From positions 40,174-104,173 of the forward strand of contig CAZDIP010000001.1 of assembly GCA_964505635.1 (NCBI GenBank): a stretch of 64,000 nt of DNA, given 5' to 3'. The stretch comes from an uncultured Candidatus Saccharibacteria bacterium. Lineage in GTDB: Bacteria; Patescibacteriota; Doudnabacteria; UBA920. The position numbers and the translations under genes are program-made. The notes below the pieces were generated by a model that made no database searches, was not told the DNA's origin, and was given only the letters and a program-made list of their open reading frames with translations. Positions 4,266-50,082 of the stretch are shown piece by piece; positions within the stretch are counted from its first letter, which is position 1, and every line of letters begins with the position of its first letter.

Positions 4266-4871
4266 ATGAGGGCTTTGACGGCTCTTTTTTTGTTTTTGTT
4301 TTGCGCCTGCTTTTTAGAGGCGCCTCGCATGTTAAGTTTTGAAGAAGAGATTGCTTCCAGGTCTCTTATTTCAAAACAGCCTTTGCCTTCCTCGCTTTTA
4401 GACAACTTGTCTAAGGCGGTGGAGTTTGCCCTGCTTAGCGGGGCGGCAAGGGAGATAAGCCAACAAGATCTATTCCACGCGCATTTACTGTTTGCGCGGG
4501 GCAACAGGAACCTTTTGAGCCCAGACGCCATCCTCCTTCACGCGCAGGAAATGGTTGTTTGGTCGCCGGAGGAATTTAAAAAAAGAAACGTCCTTATTTC
4601 CTTGGCAGGACAGCCGGAAATTTTGGACTGTTCCCGTGGCCTCAGCCGGCGCAGGTTTTTCCCACAGGCAGAATGGCCAACGCTTTGTGTAGTTGATGAA
4701 CACGACCTGGGTCTGACAAATCCGGCGGACGTTTATATTGTCCGCGTTGACAGGATTTCTAAGGCTCTGGCCAGAAGCCTTGGCCACAACACCCGCTCCG
4801 TGCGAGGGCTGAAAGTCTTGTTTGTCGGTTTTGGGCTCACGCTCAAAAACGGCCGTCTCGCTCTACCATGA
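4266..4871 (+). CDS. Hypothetical protein. The ORF is GC-rich and atypical, with a hydrophobic N-terminus (possible signal or lipoprotein). It could be foreign DNA, or the region could be a structured RNA.
   Basis: 201 aa. It has its own promoter, a strong SD and a terminator. Composition is far above the window average. Overlapping ORFs on both strands keep a noncoding-RNA alternative open. Confidence 0.35.
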   Translation: MRALTALFLFLFCACFLEAPRMLSFEEEIASRSLISKQPLPSSLLDNLSKAVEFALLSGAAREISQQDLFHAHLLFARGNRNLLSPDAILLHAQEMVVWSPEEFKKRNVLISLAGQPEILDCSRGLSRRRFFPQAEWPTLCVVDEHDLGLTNPADVYIVRVDRISKALARSLGHNTRSVRGLKVLFVGFGLTLKNGRLALP

Positions 4872-4930
4872 CCCACGAAACCCCAATTAGATGTTTTCGT
4901 GGGTTTCGTTTGTTTAAAAGCGTTTTTTTT
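4871..4930 (+). terminator. Intrinsic terminator (10 bp stem ACCCACGAAA/TTTCGTGGGT followed by a T-run)
   Basis: The hairpin starts at the stop codon of the 4266 ORF and is followed by TTCGTTTGTTTAAAAGCGTTTTTTTT. Confidence 0.5.
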
Positions 4931-4951
4931 GTTAGAATAAAAGTAAATTTT

Positions 4952-6247
4952 ATGCAAAATCAGCAAACAAAACTTTCTTTAGAGCCGTATAAAGGCACGA
5001 GAGATTTTTATCCGAAAGACCAATTCGTGCAGAACTATATTTTTTCCGTTTGGAAAAAAGTTTGTGAAAGTTACGGGTATTTGGAGTACGGCGCTTCTAT
5101 TTTGGAAGAGACCGAGCTTTATAAAAGCAAGTCCGGCGAGGAAATTGTAAACGAGCAAACCTACACTTTTATAGACCGCGGCGGCAGGAATGTGACCATT
5201 CGCCCGGAAATGACGCCTACAGTAGCCAGAATGGTGGCGCAAAAGCGCAAAGAGCTAACTTTTCCTTTGCGGTGGTTTAGCATCCCTAACCTTTTTAGGT
5301 ACGAAAGGCCGCAAAGAGGCAGGCTTAGGGAGCACTGGCAGCTTAACGCGGACATTTTTGGTGTTGACTCAATAGAGGCGGATGTGGAAATAATCTCTTT
5401 AGCTTATAGTATAATGAAAGGCTTCAAAGCTAAAGACGAACAATTTGTTATTCATTTAAACAGCCGAAAGTTTTTAAATTATCTTCTTAGGGAATATTTT
5501 AGGCTTTCCGAAGAACAAGCTTTAAAAACCGGCAAACTTTTAGACAGGATGGCGAAAATGACGCCTGCCGCTTTTGAAGAAAACGGCGTAGAAATTTTAG
5601 GCGCGGCTGAATTTAAAACTTTGCAGAAAATTATCGGCACCAACGATTTAGCAGAGTTGCCCGAGGATTTGCAAAAGCACGATTCAGTTACCCAGCTAAA
5701 ATTGGTATTTGAAAAATTGCGGGGAAATGGAATAGAAAATTTGGTTTTTGATATTGGGCTTGTAAGGGGTTTTGACTATTATACCGGCGCGGTATTTGAA
5801 GTATTTGATACTAGTCCGGAAAACGCCAGGTCGCTTTTCGGCGGCGGCAGGTATGACGACTTAGTTGGAATTTTTGATGTTGAAAAAGTTTCCGGGGTTG
5901 GTTTTGGCGTGGGCGATGTAACCATCCGCGATTTTTTGGAAACCCATAATTTGTTGCCGGAATATGCCTCGCCGGTTAAGCTTTATATTTGCCACCTTGA
6001 AGGCTATGTTGAAGAGGCTAATAAGTTAGCAAACTACTTAAGAGAGCAGGGAGTAAATGCGGCCGTTGATCTATCTGATAGAAAAGTTTCCCAGCAAGTT
6101 AAAACTGCGGATAAAGAAAGCATCCCATATGTTTTGGTTGTTGGGGAAGAAGAAATTAAAAGCGGGAAGTTTAAATTAAAAAATTTAAAGGAGAGCAGGG
6201 AAGAGGAGTTGGAAACAAAAGACATCGCGGCTTATTTAAAAAAATAG
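4952..6247 (+). CDS. hisS: Histidine--tRNA ligase
   Basis: MQNQQTKLSLEPYKGTRDFYP... shows class II aaRS motifs and the HisRS HGGGRYD-like block GGGRYDDL. The ORF track starts at 4868, but that extension overlaps the upstream terminator. Confidence 0.9.
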   Translation: MQNQQTKLSLEPYKGTRDFYPKDQFVQNYIFSVWKKVCESYGYLEYGASILEETELYKSKSGEEIVNEQTYTFIDRGGRNVTIRPEMTPTVARMVAQKRKELTFPLRWFSIPNLFRYERPQRGRLREHWQLNADIFGVDSIEADVEIISLAYSIMKGFKAKDEQFVIHLNSRKFLNYLLREYFRLSEEQALKTGKLLDRMAKMTPAAFEENGVEILGAAEFKTLQKIIGTNDLAELPEDLQKHDSVTQLKLVFEKLRGNGIENLVFDIGLVRGFDYYTGAVFEVFDTSPENARSLFGGGRYDDLVGIFDVEKVSGVGFGVGDVTIRDFLETHNLLPEYASPVKLYICHLEGYVEEANKLANYLREQGVNAAVDLSDRKVSQQVKTADKESIPYVLVVGEEEIKSGKFKLKNLKESREEELETKDIAAYLKK

Positions 6248-28132: not shown

Positions 28133-28771
28133 TTGCATTATTATATGGAGCAAATACCAATGATTACCTCACTTTGTAAAAAAAGTGTTCAGGCAATAAA
28201 CTATTTTGCCCGTAAAAAAGACGGCCCAATAAATAAAATGAAGGCAATTAAGCTCATTTATTTTGCCGATAGATATCATCTTAGGAAATATGGCAGACCT
28301 GTTGTTGGGGATGATTATTGGGCGATGAAATTGGGGCCGGTTGCTTCAAACACTCTAGATACAGCTAATTTAGCTAGTAATAGTCTTGAAAAAGACTGTT
28401 TTCAATATGCCAAAACATTTATTTCACATCCAAAGGGCGATATAAAAATGGAGAATATTATCTCTAAAGAAAATGTTGACTTAAGCATTTTTTCTCAAAC
28501 AGATATAGACGCATTAGAAATAGCATTTAAAGAATTTGGGGACAAAGACCAATTTGAGCTTGCAGACACTTCACATATTTATCCCGAATGGTTAAAGCAT
28601 AAACACGATATTTTGGTTGAGGGTAAAAAAAGGGTTAAAATGGACTACTTAGACTTTTTCTTAAACCCAAGAAGTGGCGGCTCTCATATTTTTGATTTAC
28701 CTGAAGAACATCTTGATTTAGCAAAAAATTCTTACTTAGAAAGCCAAGATGCCGATTTAATTTTGGGATAG
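28133..28771 (+). CDS. Panacea-domain (DUF4065, SocA-like) putative antitoxin
   Basis: KAIKLIYFADRYHLRKYGRPVVGDDYWAMKLGPVASNTLD matches the Panacea/DUF4065 core. Confidence 0.65.
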   Translation: MHYYMEQIPMITSLCKKSVQAINYFARKKDGPINKMKAIKLIYFADRYHLRKYGRPVVGDDYWAMKLGPVASNTLDTANLASNSLEKDCFQYAKTFISHPKGDIKMENIISKENVDLSIFSQTDIDALEIAFKEFGDKDQFELADTSHIYPEWLKHKHDILVEGKKRVKMDYLDFFLNPRSGGSHIFDLPEEHLDLAKNSYLESQDADLILG

Positions 28772-35338: not shown

Positions 35339-35370
35339 AAACCACCCGTCAAAACGGGTGGTTTTATGTT
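35339..35370. terminator. Terminator hairpin (AACCACCCG-TCAAAA-CGGGTGGTT followed by TTATGTT) between rplL and a convergent gene
   Basis: Seen directly in the sequence. Confidence 0.55.
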
Positions 35371-36251
35371 GTCTGCTTGTCAGGTCTTGTCAAAAAATAA
35401 ACCCCGCACAGCATGGGCGCGATTGCGGCTAGCTGCCAAAATTGAGGAAGCTCTTTTATTATTAAATAGGAAAAAAGCATGGTTAAAAAAGGGCGAATGC
35501 TTGCCAGGGCATTGGCTTTGGTCACTGAAATCCGTAAAATTGATTCCAGCCAGAAAATTTTGGAAACGCCCAAAATCACCACCCCGTTAAAAATTAAAAA
35601 TAAAAGCAGGCTTAAATTTACGGCAGGCAAATTAAAACCGTGAAAAATAAAAGCCAGCAAGAAAATAAACGGCAGGGACATGGCTGTTCGCATCAGCATA
35701 AGGCTTTCACCGCTGATTTGCCGGCGGATTTTGCGCTGTAAAAAATTGCCCATGGGCGGGAGCGCGGTACAGAGCAAGATGAGCAAGTCGCCTTTATTAA
35801 AATCCAATTTTTGCATCTGCGGGTAAAAAATTAACAAAGTGCTCAGCAGCATCAATCCGGCTCCAAACAGATGCGCTTTAGTCAGGGACTCTTTTTTCCA
35901 GACATTGAAAAATAGGAAACTGAAAAAAAGTTCCATTTGCAGAATAATACCCGAGTTGTTGGCCGAAGTATAATTAAGCCCCCAAAAGTAAAGCCCATAG
36001 TAACCAACGCCAATTAATAACGCAACACCCAGCGCGTCTTTTATGATTTGGCGATTTTTCAGCTCGCCGAATTTATTTTTTAAAAATACCCAGAAAGCGA
36101 AAAATAGGGCGCTAAGCGCCAGGCTGTAAGCGAGGGAAAACAGGGGTTTTAAAATGGAAAATGAAAGCAGGGTTACAATGGGTAAAAGGCTGTTTATAAG
36201 AGATTCTGCCAAAATGGCCAGTTCGCCTTTGCGGGTTTCGGTTAAGTTCAT
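35364..36251 (-). CDS. DMT-superfamily (EamA-like) membrane transporter
   Basis: 295 aa with about 10 TM helices in two halves. Confidence 0.45.
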   Translation of the reverse strand: MNLTETRKGELAILAESLINSLLPIVTLLSFSILKPLFSLAYSLALSALFFAFWVFLKNKFGELKNRQIIKDALGVALLIGVGYYGLYFWGLNYTSANNSGIILQMELFFSFLFFNVWKKESLTKAHLFGAGLMLLSTLLIFYPQMQKLDFNKGDLLILLCTALPPMGNFLQRKIRRQISGESLMLMRTAMSLPFIFLLAFIFHGFNLPAVNLSLLLFLIFNGVVILGVSKIFWLESILRISVTKANALASIRPFLTMLFSYLIIKELPQFWQLAAIAPMLCGVYFLTRPDKQTT

Positions 36252-43572: not shown

Positions 43573-44625
43573 TTATGGTCTTCCTTTATCCCGTTTATTT
43601 TTTAAATAATCAACCGCAAAAAGTGCAAAGGGTAACTCTTTGGTGTTTAGGTGCAAGAGGCTAGATCGACTGCCCTCCGCAACAAAATCGAAAGGAATAA
43701 AATCTGCGGAGCCGGGTTCTTTTACAGCCTGTTTGCGAAGCCATTCCATAGTTTTTTCAAATACTTCCTTGGTCAATCCGCCTTCCCCAGTCCTTCTAAT
43801 AAGCTCAGCTGCTATTAGCGAGGTTTTTAAGAAGAATAGATTACGTTTGTATTCCTGACCTTTTCTAATATAATCGGGCTGCATTCTCATTCGTTTTTCA
43901 GACTCAAATAGTGAGTTTACATTCCTATCCGGGTGATGGGTTCTGGATTTTTCTAGATCAAAACCCCAGCTCGCTAATTTATGTGGATAATAATTTGCGG
44001 TTGCAGTAATCAATCCTTGAAACTTTGAATCATTGGCAATGATGCCTCTACGGCTTCTGACTTTTGTTAAAGTGTTTATTACTGCGGCCGGACCATGTAA
44101 AAATTTAAAAGCATGTTCTTTGTATACTTTTTGTAAATCGCCGCTAGAGGCCGCATCCTCATAAATGTTCGGTAATGGTCGCGTGCTATCTCTGCCAAGG
44201 TTGGGACTGGCTTTTGTATCTTTTATTTTTCTGGTTCTTTGTAAGAAACTTTTTTCTCTTCCCGAAAAAATCTTGGCTACATCTTCACTACTCGGTACTT
44301 CCAAACAAGAAGTCCAGTCACCTTTATAAAACCAATCTTCAATTAACCGAATAGCCGTGTTAATAAACCTCTGATCTTCTTTAGTTTCTATATCTACCTC
44401 GCCAAAGCTTTCGTATCTAAAAAAATATTTTATCCTATCCCAAATGTGGGCTTCTAAAGCATTAATATCCAAATTATCTTTTGGAAACGCCTTGACTACG
44501 TTGGCTAGAGAGGTTGCATAATTTCGAATAAAACTGCGCAAATCCAATTTTTCTGGCTCCCCTTTAGACTTAGTGTCGTTTTCAAGAAGATTTTGGTAAG
44601 CTTTGAAAATTTCAGGTCTTTTCAT
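43573..44625 (-). CDS. Hypothetical protein
   Basis: 350 aa ORF. No motif recognised. Confidence 0.5.
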   Translation of the reverse strand: MKRPEIFKAYQNLLENDTKSKGEPEKLDLRSFIRNYATSLANVVKAFPKDNLDINALEAHIWDRIKYFFRYESFGEVDIETKEDQRFINTAIRLIEDWFYKGDWTSCLEVPSSEDVAKIFSGREKSFLQRTRKIKDTKASPNLGRDSTRPLPNIYEDAASSGDLQKVYKEHAFKFLHGPAAVINTLTKVRSRRGIIANDSKFQGLITATANYYPHKLASWGFDLEKSRTHHPDRNVNSLFESEKRMRMQPDYIRKGQEYKRNLFFLKTSLIAAELIRRTGEGGLTKEVFEKTMEWLRKQAVKEPGSADFIPFDFVAEGSRSSLLHLNTKELPFALFAVDYLKNKRDKGRP

Positions 44626-44989: not shown

Positions 44990-45022
44990 ATGGTAGACCA
45001 AGTCGAGACAGGTGGAAAACTT
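44990..45022. repeat. Left copy of a perfect 33 bp inverted repeat (ATGGTAGACCAAGTCGAGACAGGTGGAAAACTT)
   Basis: Exact reverse complement of 48617-48649. Verified base by base over 29 nt, with about 2 nt more on each side. Confidence 0.8.
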
Positions 45023-45089
45023 TTCTCGCATTGGTAAAAGAGATTTATAATTTGTTTGTTACCAAGCCTATTGTCCCTAATGCTACTTT

Positions 45090-45686
45090 TTAGGTTTTGT
45101 TTTTTTGTTTATTTAATATGTCTGAAATTTGATAGCCTTTATAAATTATATGGCTATTTTCTCGTTCATAAATTTCTTTTTTCTCTTTTGAAGTAGAAAT
45201 CTCTCCGTCTAAGTATAAAGGATGGATGCCTATAGTAAACCAAATGGCTTTATATAACTCATCAATTTCATATAAGGTTAGGCTGTATTCTTTATGAACA
45301 CCAGAAGGTCGGTCATAATAAATTATCCAGCCATCATTTATTTTCATACTTTCATTTATATCCTCATTGTTATCTGGATAGCGAATTTCTTCCCATTGAT
45401 GCAATCTTTCTATAGTTTTTCGTTCGTCATATAGACTTAAATCCGCCTTTGGATACATTTCTTTAAATTTTTCCCAAATAGCTGGCAAATTATGACCAAG
45501 CTTTTCTTTTATAACTTTTTTTAGCAACATTTCAATAGCGTGATGAAAAAGATTTGCAGCTATAGGAATTAAACCGCCAAAAGTTGCCCATCTGGCTGCT
45601 AAATAGTATTGCACAGATATAGTCATATGCCGGTCTCGTGTAGTTTTGTCGTCCATAAATTTGTAATTACACCTTAAGACTTTCAT
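45090..45686 (-). CDS. HEPN-like domain protein (putative)
   Basis: LFHHAIEMLLKKVIKE and ERKTIERLHQ (Rx6H-like). The start may be M21 at 45626 (MTISV), which would avoid overlapping the kinase gene. Confidence 0.4.
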   Translation of the reverse strand: MKVLRCNYKFMDDKTTRDRHMTISVQYYLAARWATFGGLIPIAANLFHHAIEMLLKKVIKEKLGHNLPAIWEKFKEMYPKADLSLYDERKTIERLHQWEEIRYPDNNEDINESMKINDGWIIYYDRPSGVHKEYSLTLYEIDELYKAIWFTIGIHPLYLDGEISTSKEKKEIYERENSHIIYKGYQISDILNKQKNKT

Positions 45687-46650
45687 CTAACCAAGAGTTC
45701 TCATAAAAGTCAGAAATTTTATCTGCTGCTTTTTTTAAAGCACGCCCTTCCCATAAACCATTTTGGTGGTCAATTAAAGTCTCTAAAAATGGATCTAGGT
45801 AATAAAGCCTTACTCTGTTCGCTAAGTTAGGAACTTGAAATAGTGTCGGGTAATACTTTTTTAGCCAACCAAGTTCTTTAGTCATTTGGTAATCGCCGTA
45901 TAGGTGTTCTATTTTTTCTTCTACTGTAAATTTTGGGCGATGAAAGGTGTCCATAATTTTCCAAAGTTCGTAGTCCCTTGGTGCTTGGCAAGCCCAGTCT
46001 AAATCTATAATTCCGGTAAGCTGACCGTTTTTATGGAAAATATTTTCTAAATGTATATCTTGGTGAACCATTACGGCCGTGCCAGCTTCATCTAAGCTGG
46101 AAATGTTATTTTTGTAAAATTGCACTAACATATCGATTTTGTCAGCAATTTCCTTTGGAAGCTTGTCTTTTTGGATTAACTTAATTTCTTTTTCCGTTAA
46201 CCTTTCTACTGCATACTTTAAGTTGTTAAAAGAAGTATAGGAAACAATAGGCATACTATAACTGTCGCAGCTAATAGAGTGCCAAAGTTGTAGCTGTTCG
46301 GCTAGTTGTTCTATAAGGCTTTCTTTTTGACTATTGCTAAATGACATCCAATCGTAGACTAAATTATTACCTACTACCATTTCCATTAATATATAACGAT
46401 TGTCTTCAAATGAACCAAAGTCAATTATTTTAGGAACTTTTGCTCCTTTGCTTAAAAGTTTAGCTGTTATTTCTTGTGCTGGTTTTAAAATTTCATGTTC
46501 ACCTTTACCTTCCACCTTTAAAGCATATTTACCGCCTAGATTGTAGACACGATTAATAGAACCGCTTGAGAAACGTTTGGTTTCAAGCGATTGGTCTAAG
46601 TTATTTTTGTTAATTACAGACTGAATAATTTTAGAATATATGTCGTCCAT
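45667..46650 (-). CDS. Phosphotransferase enzyme family (APH / protein-kinase-like) protein
   Basis: VMVHQDIHLENIF (Brenner motif), IIDLDWA and a Gly-rich N-lobe. 327 aa. Confidence 0.6.
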   Translation of the reverse strand: MDDIYSKIIQSVINKNNLDQSLETKRFSSGSINRVYNLGGKYALKVEGKGEHEILKPAQEITAKLLSKGAKVPKIIDFGSFEDNRYILMEMVVGNNLVYDWMSFSNSQKESLIEQLAEQLQLWHSISCDSYSMPIVSYTSFNNLKYAVERLTEKEIKLIQKDKLPKEIADKIDMLVQFYKNNISSLDEAGTAVMVHQDIHLENIFHKNGQLTGIIDLDWACQAPRDYELWKIMDTFHRPKFTVEEKIEHLYGDYQMTKELGWLKKYYPTLFQVPNLANRVRLYYLDPFLETLIDHQNGLWEGRALKKAADKISDFYENSWLDESLKV

Positions 46651-46773
46651 TTATAAATTATAGCCCAAATTACTAATAAATAAAACAAAAAAGTTCTCCA
46701 CTTGTAGCATTGGAAAACTCTTGTGAATCAATATTGATAGTCAAAATTGTAACTTTTTAAACAAAAATTCATT

Positions 46774-46848
46774 TGGTAGCGCTACGGGGAATCGAACCCC
46801 GATTTGGTGGATGAGAACCACCTGTCCTAACCATTAGACGATAGCGCC
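46774..46848 (-). tRNA. tRNA-Glu (anticodon CTC)
   Basis: rc: GGCGCTA-TC-GTCTAATGGTTAGGACA-GGTGG-TTCTCAT-CCACC-AAAT-CGGGGTTCGATTCCCCG-TAGCGCT-A-CCA. Confidence 0.85.
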
Positions 46849-46976
46849 AAATTCCTAACAATTCTAGCAGTTATGAAAAAAATACTCAATAAACGAAAAT
46901 AAGTTGTTTTTTTAAAAAGCCTATTGCTCAAGCAAAGGAAAATGGAAAACTTTTTTGTTTAAAACAAAAGCAAATT

Positions 46977-47005
46977 TTGACAAAAGCTTAAAAATCGGCT
47001 ATACT
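46977..47005 (+). promoter_or_regulatory. Near-consensus sigma70 promoter (TTGACA-N17-TATACT) driving the RT leader
   Basis: TTGACA at 46977-46982, a 17 nt spacer and TATACT at 47000-47005. Confidence 0.55.
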
Positions 47006-47011
47006 GTGGTC

Positions 47012-47298
47012 ATCGGGGTGGAAACCGAATAGGTTTTAACACCGACCAAAGGAATTTAACCTTTATAACAAATCGGAGAGCCAGAGCGCCCTAGCCATAA
47101 GGCAGACAGATATGAGCAGATATGCTATAATAAAGTTAGAGACCTTCCGCTTTGAGACAAACATTAAAATGTTCGCCGACAAAGTGGGAAATGCCTTTAA
47201 AAGAATACCAAGTAAAGTTGGAGCTATTAAAGAGCACTCCATTTGGAAGCTGATTAGGCGCTTGAGTTATGTAATCAGCCTCCTCCCAAATTAAAAAT
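47012..47298 (+). ncRNA. Candidate RT-associated noncoding RNA / structured leader (~285 nt) between the promoter and the RT start codon
   Basis: No SD before the RT. Contains a 12 bp hairpin GGAAGCTGATTA...TAATCAGCCTCC at 47245-47283, ending 15 nt before the RT ATG. Only a weak 60 aa ORF lies inside. Confidence 0.35.
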
Positions 47299-48609
47299 AT
47301 GGAAAATTTATTGAGCCGGCTTGGCTCTTTTATTTTGCTTGAGAAACAGGCAAAAAACGTTAATAAGCAAATTAAACGGAATGCGAAAAAGAATAAAATC
47401 GCCAATCCGCGCTTTTTTAACTTGGAAGAACTTAAGACATTACCAGAAAAAATATTAAATAAAAGTTTTACATTTGATTTACTCCGTGCCAAGACTATAC
47501 CAAAGCCTGGCAAAACCAAACGAAGACCGCTCTCAATACCAACGCCGAGAGACAGGGTCGTTTATGGTGTATTAAACAGACTGCTAAAACCTGCTCTTAT
47601 TGGGTATTTAAATCAAGCGCCTTCTTATGGAATATTAAAAAAACGCGGCGTGCATGGAGCGTATACTGAGATAAAAAAGCATTTAGCAGATGGTTGTCAT
47701 TATGTTCTAAAAGTTGATATCCAAGATTTTTTTAATAAAATTGACAAGGGAATTTTATCATTTATTTTATTTCCAAGAATTGCCAATACCGCTGACTCCT
47801 CAATTAACCATTTAATTAGGGACTGCTTAAAATTTGAATATAAGTCTTTACCGGAAGAGGAGGAGTTAAGAAAACTTTTTCCTACAAAATATTATGGCAT
47901 CGCACAAGGCAACGCTTTATCTCCACTATTTGCTGATGTCTACCTAAAGCTATTTGACTCGGAACTTAAACGTTCCGGTTTTAAAGTTGTTAGGTATGTT
48001 GATGATTTAATTGTTTTTACAAAAACAAAAAAGGAACTTTATCCAGCTTACATAAAAATTAAAAACTGTCTTAAGCCTCTAAAGCTAACTATAGATAAAT
48101 ACAATACGGGTAAATGTATAGCAACTGATATTACTCGGCATGTTGAATTTTTAGGCGTAGACATTGGACCGGGACAGATTTTAACAATACAGGGAAATAG
48201 GGTGCAAGCACTTAGGAGTAAGCTCTCGGCTTTATTAGATAGATTCTATAACAAGCGCTTTGTTCATATTTCCTATAAAGAAAAAATGGACGGTATTAAT
48301 GGACTGATTGAAGGTTGGGCTGGCGCGTATAGTATGTGTGACCGTGCTTATTTAGCAGATTTGTATGAGAAGCTAAATAAAATGATAAATAGTAATATTG
48401 ACAGCCTTTTAAATCGCGGGCTTATTGTCCAAAAAGAGCACGATTATCTATTTAATAATGTAAGACGTTTCCATTTACCTACTGGCAAAAAACGAAAGAT
48501 TACGAGGAAGAAAAAATCTCGCTATAGTTACGGAGTCAAGCCATCAAAAGGCCAATTGAAGATTTGGAGTGGCGGTATTTATAATTTAAGAGTAAATGTC
48601 CTTTACTAG
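47299..48609 (+). CDS. Reverse transcriptase (retron/group-II-like RT domain with a thumb; no endonuclease domain)
   Basis: RT motifs: RRPLSIPTPRDRVVYGVL (1/2), SYGILKKRGVHGAY (2a), YVLKVDIQDFFNKI (A), GIAQGNALSPLFADVYL (B'), RYVDDLIVF (C) and EFLGVDI (7), then a GLIEGWAGAYS thumb motif. 436 aa. Confidence 0.85.
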   Translation: MENLLSRLGSFILLEKQAKNVNKQIKRNAKKNKIANPRFFNLEELKTLPEKILNKSFTFDLLRAKTIPKPGKTKRRPLSIPTPRDRVVYGVLNRLLKPALIGYLNQAPSYGILKKRGVHGAYTEIKKHLADGCHYVLKVDIQDFFNKIDKGILSFILFPRIANTADSSINHLIRDCLKFEYKSLPEEEELRKLFPTKYYGIAQGNALSPLFADVYLKLFDSELKRSGFKVVRYVDDLIVFTKTKKELYPAYIKIKNCLKPLKLTIDKYNTGKCIATDITRHVEFLGVDIGPGQILTIQGNRVQALRSKLSALLDRFYNKRFVHISYKEKMDGINGLIEGWAGAYSMCDRAYLADLYEKLNKMINSNIDSLLNRGLIVQKEHDYLFNNVRRFHLPTGKKRKITRKKKSRYSYGVKPSKGQLKIWSGGIYNLRVNVLY

Positions 48610-48616
48610 AGCCAAA

Positions 48617-48649
48617 TAAGTTTTCCACCTGTCTCGACTTGGTCTACCA
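48617..48649. repeat. Right copy of the perfect 33 bp inverted repeat, 8 nt after the RT stop and before the RT terminator
   Basis: AAGTTTTCCACCTGTCTCGACTTGGTCTACCAT is the rc of 44990-45022. Confidence 0.8.
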
Positions 48650-48669
48650 TCATTTAGATAATCCCTTCT

Positions 48670-48695
48670 AAACCGCTAATTTGGCGGTTTTTGTA
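48670..48695 (+). terminator. Intrinsic terminator after the RT (AACCGC-TAATTT-GCGGTT followed by TTTTGTAATTT)
   Basis: Seen directly in the sequence. Confidence 0.5.
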
Positions 48696-48867
48696 ATTTA
48701 TTGTATAATTAACCAGTAAAAAGTGAAAAGTCTAGGTAAAATTGAAACAAAAATACCATTAAACATAAATGGGTAAACCCGCCTAAAATATATTTATATC
48801 TATTACAAGTTTTAAAAGTATAAAGGGGTTAAAATGTTAGGAGCTATCAAATTTCAAACAAATATTT

Positions 48868-50082
48868 ATGGCGGGTAAACAAATTTTAAAATTCCCGCAA
48901 GGGTTTTTATGGGGCGCGGCTACCGCGGCTCATCAGGTAGAAGGCAATAACAAAAATTCCGACTGGTGGATTTGGGAATATTCTCTAAGGCGCGCTAACG
49001 GCTTAAAAGCTTTGGGTTTAAATCCTTCCGATTTCCAAAGCGGGATTGCCTGCGACTCCTATAACCGCTATGAGGAAGATTTTTCATTGGCTCAAAAGCT
49101 CGGTCATAATGCGCACCGTTTAAGCATAGAATGGGCAAGAATAGAGCCTAAGGCGGGGATTTACGACGAAGCCGAACTTTCTCATTATGAAAAAGTTTTG
49201 CGGGCAGCCAAGTTTTACGGCCTTGCCACATTCGTAACCCTGCATCATTTTACAAACCCTAAATGGTTTTCTGACCAGGGCGGCTTTACCCGGAGCGAAA
49301 ATCTTATTTTCTATCAAAATTATATTGAGCTAGTCACTAAGAGATTGGGGGAATATGTTGACTTTTGGTTAACTTTTAACGAACCGGAATTGTATGCCAC
49401 GTCCAGCTATTCAGCCAGCCTTCCCAAATATTTTACCCTAAGGGAAAAATGGAAGGTGGTTAATAATTTAATAAAGGCGCACAATAACGCCGCGAATTTC
49501 ATAAGGCATTATATCCGTAAGCCCGTAAGCATGGCCTACCATCTTTCCGACTGGCAGCCCATAGGCCTTTTGGGTTTTTTTGCTTCCAATATAGCGCACT
49601 ATTTTGCCAATGAATTTTTTATAAGCAGAACCATTAAACAATGCGACTTTATAGGAGTAAATTATTATTTCCACCACCACATCGGGCTTTTTGGAACCCG
49701 CAGCCGCAGCCACAGCGGGCATAAAAAAACAGACGTGGGTTTTGGCATCCACCCCGAGGGTTTACAGCGGGTTTTGCTGAATTTAAAGAAACACAACAAA
49801 CCCATATATGTGACCGAGAATGGCTTGGCCGACTCCAAAGACGAAAAAAGAGAAAAGTTTATTGTTGACCATTTGTACTATCTTCATAAGGCAATTGAGC
49901 AGGGCGCTGACGTAAAAGGCTATTTGCATTGGAGCTTAATAGATAATTTTGAATGGGGTTATGGTTTCAAACCCCGTTTTGGGCTTATAGAAATTGACCG
50001 CGAAGACTTGTTAAGGCGCAAGGTGCGTTACAGCGCCGTAAAATATGCCGAAATATGCCGAAAGAATTATTTGGAAATTTAA
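48868..50082 (+). CDS. Beta-glucosidase, glycoside hydrolase family 1
   Basis: FLWGAATAAHQVEGN, acid/base LTFNEPE and nucleophile YVTENGLAD. Confidence 0.85.
   Translation: MAGKQILKFPQGFLWGAATAAHQVEGNNKNSDWWIWEYSLRRANGLKALGLNPSDFQSGIACDSYNRYEEDFSLAQKLGHNAHRLSIEWARIEPKAGIYDEAELSHYEKVLRAAKFYGLATFVTLHHFTNPKWFSDQGGFTRSENLIFYQNYIELVTKRLGEYVDFWLTFNEPELYATSSYSASLPKYFTLREKWKVVNNLIKAHNNAANFIRHYIRKPVSMAYHLSDWQPIGLLGFFASNIAHYFANEFFISRTIKQCDFIGVNYYFHHHIGLFGTRSRSHSGHKKTDVGFGIHPEGLQRVLLNLKKHNKPIYVTENGLADSKDEKREKFIVDHLYYLHKAIEQGADVKGYLHWSLIDNFEWGYGFKPRFGLIEIDREDLLRRKVRYSAVKYAEICRKNYLEI

Follow-up and report, generated by a model that had tools for sequence, protein, structure and literature searches.

Comparative sequence analysis points to a conserved, structured leader RNA upstream of a free-standing reverse transcriptase resembling those of group II introns

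The reverse transcriptases (RTs) of group II introns bind domain IVa (DIVa) of the intron RNA, at the start codon of their own ORF, and act as repressors of translation. Free-standing group II intron-like (G2L) RTs are generally treated as RNA-free domesticated polymerases, representing a step between selfish introns and host enzymes at which the RNA has been lost. Upstream of G2L4 RT genes, direct repeats of ~140 bp have been reported in about 70% of cases, and these conserved repeats modulate the activity of the RT with the level of the protein unchanged (bioRxiv 10.1101/2022.03.14.484287). The DRT10/UG17 lineage of defence-associated RTs (DRTs) has been described as group II-like with a YVDD active site (PMC4244168) and was equated with UG17 (PMC8632793). 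Here we analysed a G2L-type RT gene and the non-coding leader of ~290 nucleotides (nt) that precedes it in a 64,000-nt stretch of DNA (the window; all positions without a locus name refer to it) from an uncultured Candidatus Saccharibacteria bacterium (contig CAZDIP010000001.1). A first-pass annotation, made from the sequence alone, had read this locus as a module of retron or DRT type, in which a non-coding RNA (ncRNA) serves as template. A conserved, structured ncRNA does accompany the RT; placement among the retrons, DRT2 or DRT9 did not survive, since the scores for these families fell far below their cutoffs or below those for intron RTs. The elements of the module are as follows.

46977–47005, forward strand: promoter P1, TTGACA-17-TATACT, matching 11 of 12 consensus positions, with a predicted start near 47012.
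47014–47044, forward strand: stem-loop SL1, a two-tier stem capped by a YUAAA-type pentaloop, with a conserved GACC after it (RNAalifold on three and on six sequences).
47048–47064, forward strand: SL2, a short hairpin AAAGG/CCUUU, conserved in position and not in sequence; the weakest helix.
47080–47103, forward strand: SL3, a short stem closing a conserved loop of 12–15 nt (GAGCRCC.UAAU), part of covariance model R2.
47103–47131, forward strand: internal promoter P2, CAGACA-17-TATAAT with an upstream TG, matching 10 of 12 positions, with a predicted start near 47138.
47147–47187, forward strand: SLa, a hairpin with an A-rich loop (apical stem 47160–47173) inside a longer stem.
47195–47232, forward strand: SLb, a long stem-loop with basal CUUUAA/UUAAAG and apical CCAA/UUGG pairing; helices 1 and 2 of covariance model R1.
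47245–47283, forward strand: SLc, a 12-bp hairpin GG..GCUGAUUA / UAAUCAGC..CC that ends 15 nt before the AUG; helix 3 of R1.
47299–48609, forward strand: RT open reading frame (ORF) of 436 amino acids (aa), with RT0–RT7, a thumb, a YVDD active site and a basic C-terminal tail.
47313–47336, forward strand: terminator-like hairpin GAGCC-N5-GGCUC followed by UUUUAUUUU, within RT codons 5–13 and starting 14 nt after the AUG.
48670–48700, forward strand: intrinsic terminator-like hairpin after the RT gene, with a nine-pair stem and a T run.

We searched for relatives of the RT at several levels. A word-indexed search of 5.8 billion protein clusters returned only three, at 30–46% identity, and an exhaustive profile search returned a broad RT family of 1,425 cluster representatives at E ≤ 1e-30. 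The N-terminus of the window-type RT (..LLS.LGSF..) was seen in only a few members of this family. In the DNA of the subclade loci that were examined, the leader was present in nine lineages, several of which are known from short contigs. These are the window; a Candidatus Buchananbacteria genome (loci L001–L008, L011 and L097); L009; L092; L093/L094; L095/L096; L025, from a Saccharibacteria genome; L160; and L161–L163. The lineages appear to be mostly bacteria of the Candidate Phyla Radiation (CPR), where such systems have been little studied; for the window this affiliation is taken from its relatives. Metagenome contigs, viral contigs, and phage and plasmid records held no close relative beyond the Buchananbacteria homologue, and the literature that we searched gave no description of this leader RNA or of this RT subclade.

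The –10 box of P1 and the ATG are 293 nt apart, so the leader measures ~287–290 nt; it folds better than shuffled sequence (z = −2.86). The window carries a 60-aa ORF at 47112–47294, but the homologous leaders have stops in every frame, and a leader-encoded small protein was rejected because no reading frame is conserved. A neo-like antisense ORF was rejected as well, the 127-aa minus-strand ORF of the window not being conserved in homologous leaders. Most leaders have stops in all six frames and none showed a conserved stop-free frame, in a search that was not exhaustive for concatenated sub-regions. The original description of the leader as lacking a credible coding sequence was thus correct.

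Conservation of the leader was evident at the DNA level, where blocks of it could be aligned between loci with RTs of only 46% amino acid identity. Using the window leader alone as a blastn query, the syntenic site was matched at E = 3e-5 and 2e-4, while a downstream control gave no syntenic match. Global pairwise identity of leader and ORF was dropped as a measure, being uninformative in AT-rich sequence, and MAFFT misaligned the middle of six whole leaders; a segment-wise analysis was used along with covariance models. Two models, R1 for the 3′ domain and R2 for the 5′ domain, were each built from three sequences. R1 scored 31.7 bits in L092, 24.8 in L161, 19.0 in L095, 18.6 in L093 and 13.3 in L160, all at the expected site. 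R2 scored 29.2 bits in L093 and 27.0 bits in L092, and weaker matches to SL1, again where expected, came from L095 (12.8 bits) and from L160, where the contig end truncates it (15.8 bits). Nothing comparable was detected with either model in ~70 other RT loci. The leader matched no Rfam family, riboswitch and leader families included, even at E up to 10. Taken together, nine-lineage conservation, covariation (described below) and covariance-model matches found only upstream of the subclade indicate that the leader is a dedicated, conserved and structured ncRNA that travels with this RT subclade. An ordinary 5′ untranslated region, which the first-pass annotation had kept as an alternative, does not agree with a structure conserved in nine lineages.

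By comparative folding, the leader holds six stem-loops with abundant compensatory changes. RNAalifold, on three and on six sequences, recovered SL1, SLc and the hairpin within the ORF. In a model-fitted alignment of the 3′ domain from seven lineages, 87.9% of cells were paired, compared with 70.7 ± 1.8% in shuffles, and 29 of the 40 pairs had changed on both sides, compared with 13.7 ± 2.4. Neither value was reached by any of 500 shuffles, and slid controls gave at most 46% paired cells and at most 8 such pairs. In hand tables, most positions of SL1, SLa, SLb and SLc had between two and four pair types. SLc corresponds to the 12-bp hairpin of the first-pass annotation; its arms (47245–47256 and 47272–47283) are 92% complementary, both-sided changes occur at 10 of its 13 pairs with 92.6% of cells paired, and the sequence of its stem differs in L092, L093, L095, L160 and L161. 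For SLb, both sides have changed at 13 of 14 pairs. A hairpin equivalent in position to SLa was seen in six lineages, with three to four pair types per position, and SL1 shows two to three pair types at most positions. The conserved loop of SL3 is kept in the Buchananbacteria locus, L009, L095 and the window, and the stem that closes it in L095 is entirely different (CUUGAA/UUCAAG). SL2 appears as a hairpin in single-sequence folds of the window, L092 and L095; in the Buchananbacteria locus, L009 and L093 it was placed by eye, and the fold of L093 does not show it.

Primary sequence in the leader is best conserved in the loops of the 5′ domain. In three leaders a repeated AUCAG flanks SL3, the two copies lying 25 nt apart; the window, L093 and L095 lack this repeat. 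The window holds a single copy of the leader, direct repeats in 46850–47400 do not exceed 18 nt, and none of the inverted repeats reported for the region joins the two ends of the leader. Inspection of the alignments by eye showed no U-run shared by the aligned leaders. We also considered pairing of the SL3 loop with tRNA-Glu as a primer-binding interaction and rejected it, as only 6 nt are complementary (by eye), and these to the 5′ acceptor strand.

The hairpin with its U-tract inside the first codons of the RT was not part of the first-pass annotation, nor was P2. An early-ORF hairpin followed by a U-tract was found in 9/9 lineages. In six of them the codons AGC, GGC, UCU and UUU are identical, in genes for RTs that are ~32–47% identical to that of the window. 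The stem is extended in L161, whereas in L160 (GGACC/GGUCC) and in L025 (CGCAG/CUGCG, followed by six U's) a different stem is formed and the amino acids are changed. RT relatives outside the subclade have neither the N-terminal motif nor the early hairpin. Since the synonymous codons are fixed or, where the amino acids are altered, compensatory swaps are seen, the comparison indicates that the hairpin is under selection at the nucleotide level, beyond selection on the protein alone.

Of the promoter-like sites in the scanned region, P1, already recognised at first pass, is the best, and near-consensus promoters occupy the equivalent position in L009, L092, L093, L025 and L161. An equivalent of P2, with an exact 17-nt spacer of non-conserved sequence, was present in the Buchananbacteria locus, L009, L092, L095, L025 and L161; overall, P2 is clear in 7/9 lineages, degenerate in L093 and displaced in L160. 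The exact spacing together with the unconserved spacer sequence fits a promoter acting at the DNA level and not an RNA motif. The first-pass annotation had stressed the lack of a Shine–Dalgarno (SD) sequence before the RT. There is indeed none, but its absence is uninformative, because an SD-like motif precedes only 4 of the 40 window ORFs of at least 200 aa. Many genes of the window have a TATAAT-like box 7–12 nt before the ATG (for example upstream of 45667–46650, 35364–36251 and 28145–28771), which suggests that mRNAs in this genome are mostly leaderless or SD-independent, as judged from these motifs. A leader of ~290 nt is therefore exceptional in the window.

The 436-aa RT with its GLIEGWAGAY thumb motif was confirmed by a match to the Pfam family RVT_1 (E = 3.8e-24); G339 and W340 of this motif are invariant across the family. 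The active site reads RYVDD in the window, and V, I or L replaces A in members of the subclade. Among NCBIfam models, the best was TIGR04416 (group II intron RT/maturase), with 161.6 bits over model positions 34–349 of 353, including the thumb; this does not reach the curated threshold of 300 bits for mobile group II introns. The scores for retron_St85_RT (54.2 bits, cutoff 235), Drt3a (51, cutoff 200) and Drt2 (43.3, cutoff 390) were much lower. In PADLOC, a generic RT model came first (146 bits), followed by UG17 as the best DRT model (118 bits, over the RT core alone at model positions 46–300 of 429), with Drt9 at 58 bits.

Comparison with solved structures gave the same picture. A profile of the RT family matched the GsI-IIC RT best (152 bits, E = 3e-43), then another intron RT (135 bits), the G2L4 RT (132 bits) and Cas6-RT-Cas1 (128 bits), with DRT9 (72 bits), DRT2 (35 bits) and retrons (25–36 bits; E from 1e-8 to 1e-4) further down. 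With the single window sequence as query, the G2L4 RT was the best match in the PDB (77 bits). An AlphaFold model of the RT (mean predicted confidence, pLDDT, 89.9), in which residues 399–436 are disordered, was closest in fold to the G2L4 RT (E = 2e-20, template-modelling (TM) score 0.69), followed by the GsI-IIC RT (~3e-18), DRT9 (4e-15), and DRT2 and retrons (~1e-10), the DRT2 structure ranking 49th. The C-terminal tail is absent in the relatives P0013 and L025.

No endonuclease domain was found in the RT, and the window neighbourhood contains no SLATT or Avd gene. Rfam searches gave no group II intron RNA domain in 45000–50000 of the window, even at E up to 10, and none at the gathering score in 20 related loci; the sequence 3′ of the ORF, where domains V–VI would be expected, is not conserved between loci. 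The earlier statement that the RT lacks an endonuclease, group II ribozyme domains and the signature of diversity-generating retroelements (DGRs) is in agreement with these results. The first-pass annotation had set against its own proposal an RT that clusters with group II intron maturases inside a foldable ribozyme; the RT does cluster with group II intron RTs and G2L4, and no foldable ribozyme was found in the window or the 20 related loci. With group II and G2L4 matches leading, no intron RNA domain and no conserved sequence downstream of the ORF, we assign the RT, by sequence and predicted fold, as a free-standing G2L enzyme of a G2L/G2L4-like lineage. Membership among retrons, DRT2, DRT9 and DGRs was rejected on hidden Markov model scores, fold ranks, motifs and missing partner features, and a group II intron on the lack of ribozyme domains in the window or relatives. 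For a DGR in particular, the leader is single-copy in the window, there is no adjacent Avd gene, and the RT4 motif reads QGNALSP.

How might the leader and the RT work together? We tentatively favour, at somewhat less than an even chance, a reading in which the leader is bound by the RT, is released by early termination, and controls expression of the RT. The leader would be the RT's own RNA partner, bound as an intron RT binds DIVa at its own start codon. The early hairpin would end most transcripts, producing discrete RNAs of ~325 nt from P1 and ~200 nt from P2, with a small amount of RT mRNA arising by read-through. The hairpin would be kept from forming by a ribosome loaded at the AUG. An RT molecule sitting at SLc would block the ribosome, termination would be favoured, and a feedback loop could result.

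Several points weigh against this reading. Termination may be weak, because the stem of the early hairpin has only 5–6 pairs, and protein constraint contributes to its conservation, because the 3′ half of the hairpin and the U-tract also encode the conserved G-S-F. P1, P2 and the terminator are predicted from consensus matches. Covariation was counted on a model-fitted alignment that leans to the structure of the model and holds only seven sequences, and in the hand tables each helix was chosen by eye for each sequence. A candidate long-range antiterminator, in which 47070–47083 of the 5′ domain would pair with the 3′ strand of the hairpin and the U-tract (47322–47335; 14 nt, 79% complementary), is partly present in L009 and is not conserved in other leaders. 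Finally, the nearest relative to have been characterised is the G2L4 RT, an enzyme that repairs DNA breaks and is not known to depend on an RNA.

A different role would follow if the leader were a template, from part of which the RT makes a functional cDNA, in the manner of retrons, DRT2, DRT9 and DRT10, the two together forming a self-contained anti-phage module. Characterised bacterial RT families with a conserved adjacent ncRNA all use that RNA as template or ribozyme partner (PMC11100668, PMC12632851, PMC12483538). The leader is more elaborate than a simple attenuator requires, with its best-conserved sequence in the loops of the 5′ domain, and several loci (Buchananbacteria, L161, L095 and L092) lie amid defence-type genes. 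The RT, however, falls outside the UG/Abi and retron lineages, and the leaders hold neither a stop-free frame conserved on either strand, hence no neo-like gene, nor a conserved U-run to serve as template. The AUCAG repeat around SL3 resembles the A-B-A′ template layout of DRT10 but is missing from other leaders, that of the window included. The C-terminal tail, which could supply a priming residue, is lost in P0013 and L025 and disordered in the model; no effector gene is conserved, and phage records, plasmid records and viral contigs yielded no relatives. We therefore consider a template possible but doubtful. Equally doubtful is the wider proposal that the leader is both bound and copied by the RT, in which case the module would count among ncRNA-templated RT systems as a new class, having arisen independently of retrons and UG/Abi DRTs, with the early-ORF terminator setting the ratio of RNA to enzyme.

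It seems unlikely, too, that the leader is a cis-acting sensor of riboswitch or attenuator type that governs the early terminator, with an RT that never binds the leader and works on different substrates, DNA repair being one example. Several stems ahead of a hairpin and U-tract are the arrangement classically seen in transcription attenuation. DNA repair is the function of the nearest solved relative, the RT of L025 is convergent with a UmuC/UmuD-like pair, and V, I or L replaces A in the active site, as I does in G2L4. On the other side stand the lack of an Rfam riboswitch or leader family match, the failure to find a conserved terminator/antiterminator alternative, and the confinement of the RNA to this RT subclade, which is unusual for a metabolite sensor; moreover, transcripts from P2 would escape such control, because the 5′ domain lies upstream of P2. 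We regard as very improbable a decayed or unusual mobile group II intron, whose ribozyme domains I–IV would have left the leader as a remnant. The similarity of the RT to intron-encoded RTs, with the maturase/thumb region kept, the position of the RNA 5′ of the ORF, where domains I–IVa would be, and the tRNA genes adjacent in the window and L009 would fit such an origin. Yet no Rfam intron domain was found in the searches of the window and the 20 related loci, nothing is conserved at the site of domains V–VI, and a leader of ~290 nt is shorter than would be expected for domains I–III. The leader is present as a single copy in the window, the RT has no endonuclease domain and stays below the TIGR04416 cutoff, and purifying selection with covariation across nine lineages is unlike a decaying remnant.

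We then examined the gene neighbourhoods. As noted at first pass, a glycoside hydrolase family 1 (GH1) glycosidase lies downstream of the RT in the window (Pfam E = 1.5e-71) and a kinase lies on the opposite strand:

45667–46650, opposite strand: APH-family kinase (Pfam E = 1.5e-17).

The label 'HEPN-like' given to the 198-aa neighbour (45090–45686, minus strand) found no backing, as this protein matched nothing in Pfam, NCBIfam, PADLOC or PDB sequences; the 350-aa protein next to the kinase (43573–44625, minus strand) had no match in Pfam, NCBIfam or PADLOC. A tRNA-Glu gene adjoins the module in the window, and tRNA genes are adjacent in L009 too. Elsewhere in the window, positions 957–1021 gave a tRNA-like Rfam match (38 bits) directly upstream of tRNA-Gly (1028–1101) which was not called by ARAGORN.

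In the Buchananbacteria genome (L001, 3784–5643), an AAA_21 ATPase and RloB pair, presumably an AbiL-like layout, is found directly upstream of the module, with a GIY-YIG gene nearby. In L092, the gene at 4447–5142 begins 10 nt past the RT stop; its 231-aa product matches HNH_5 weakly (E = 1e-4) and may serve as a separate nuclease partner confined to this lineage. A C5 methylase is encoded near the RT of L095. In L161 (1705–5617), genes for a 979-aa SNF2/DEAD helicase, a 213-aa protein and an N6/N4 methyltransferase come after the RT on its own strand, in a defence-island-like arrangement. In L025 (1723–3574), convergent with the RT are genes for a Y-family polymerase (IMS) and an S24 peptidase, which form the UmuC/UmuD-like pair and place the RT in a DNA-damage context in this one lineage. 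L093 is flanked by the housekeeping genes for SecE, NusG, L11 and L1. No SLATT family was among the Pfam families recorded for genes of the related loci. No neighbouring gene, the HEPN-labelled and kinase genes included, is conserved with the RT across loci, and these two neighbours in the window are probably unrelated to the RT. Because the gene neighbours differ between loci, the RNA and the RT, which alone are conserved together, make up the whole module.

Distant relatives with a YADD active site, from Bacteroidota and Acidobacteria, also have conserved upstream non-coding regions, of 450–600 nt. Each of these holds two direct repeats of 113–133 nt, 98–99% identical, with a start-to-start spacing of 322–449 nt:

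L030, 349–461 and 671–783: direct repeats.
L012, 1811–1943 and 2260–2392: direct repeats.
L022, 2336–2462 and 2669–2795: direct repeats.

This layout is the same as that reported upstream of the Pseudomonas G2L4 RT. The near-identity of the repeats within a locus suggests ongoing homogenisation. The lineage may in general have a conserved non-coding partner upstream, of which the present leader is one version. Among other sequences encountered, Planctomycete hits in L043 (2612–2989) and L045 (2633–2989) are bAvd and RT pairs, that is, DGRs, and lie outside this family. An Acinetobacter plasmid RT that had been taken up as a UG17 reference was rejected when it proved not to be UG17; its neighbour is AbiEi-like.

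If this subclade has kept, or regained, a conserved six-helix RNA, the step from intron to host enzyme need not discard the RNA partnership. The module may represent an RT type with a dedicated RNA partner or control element, and its leader adds an RNA family that is missing from Rfam. It also suggests that the upstream repeats of G2L4 and of the Bacteroidota and Acidobacteria relatives are RNA partners too. A terminator-like hairpin in the first codons would be an unusual coupling of ncRNA and protein output. The module is small (~1.7 kb), defined and of two parts, and can be tested in E. coli.

How, then, does the module compare with known systems? It shares with retrons (msr-msd-ret) a non-coding RNA upstream of the RT on one transcript, and differs in an RT that scores 54 bits against a retron cutoff of 235, in retron structures that rank far below the top, in the absence of a VTG motif after YVDD in the window RT sequence, and in the lack of an Rfam match. 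The order of promoter, ~280-nt ncRNA and an RT without partner protein is that of DRT2 and DRT9, but the RT is distant from both (Drt2 43 bits, Drt9 58 bits), and the conserved stop-free repeat frame or U-run is not found here. DRT10/UG17, the best PADLOC DRT model, likewise has a structured upstream ncRNA with its own promoter. That system consists of an RT, a 137-nt ncRNA and a SLATT protein and performs tandem-repeat DNA synthesis, whereas here there is no SLATT gene, the leader is twice as long and of other structure, and the C-terminal region with the priming residue is not conserved.

Mobile group II intron RT/maturases such as the GsI-IIC RT and LtrA provide the best profile match, and the stem-loop just upstream of the start codon recalls DIVa; unlike these introns, the module has no ribozyme domains, no endonuclease domain and nothing conserved 3′ of the ORF. 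The G2L4 RT is the best solved match to the window RT both by sequence and by fold. Both enzymes are free-standing proteins of ~410–440 aa with RT0–RT7 and a thumb, without endonuclease domain or intron RNA, and in both a bulkier residue takes the place of Ala in YADD and a conserved non-coding region lies upstream of the gene. The window enzyme has YVDD in place of the G2L4-defining YIDD, at an identity of only ~20%, and the hosts are CPR-type bacteria for this subclade and Proteobacteria for G2L4. Where G2L4 has two ~140-bp upstream direct repeats, the leader of the window is non-repetitive, forms six stem-loops and comes with two promoters and an early terminator-like hairpin. The module thus resembles systems that join an RT to an upstream ncRNA, yet it is a member of none; its RT is of G2L lineage, with G2L4 the closest.

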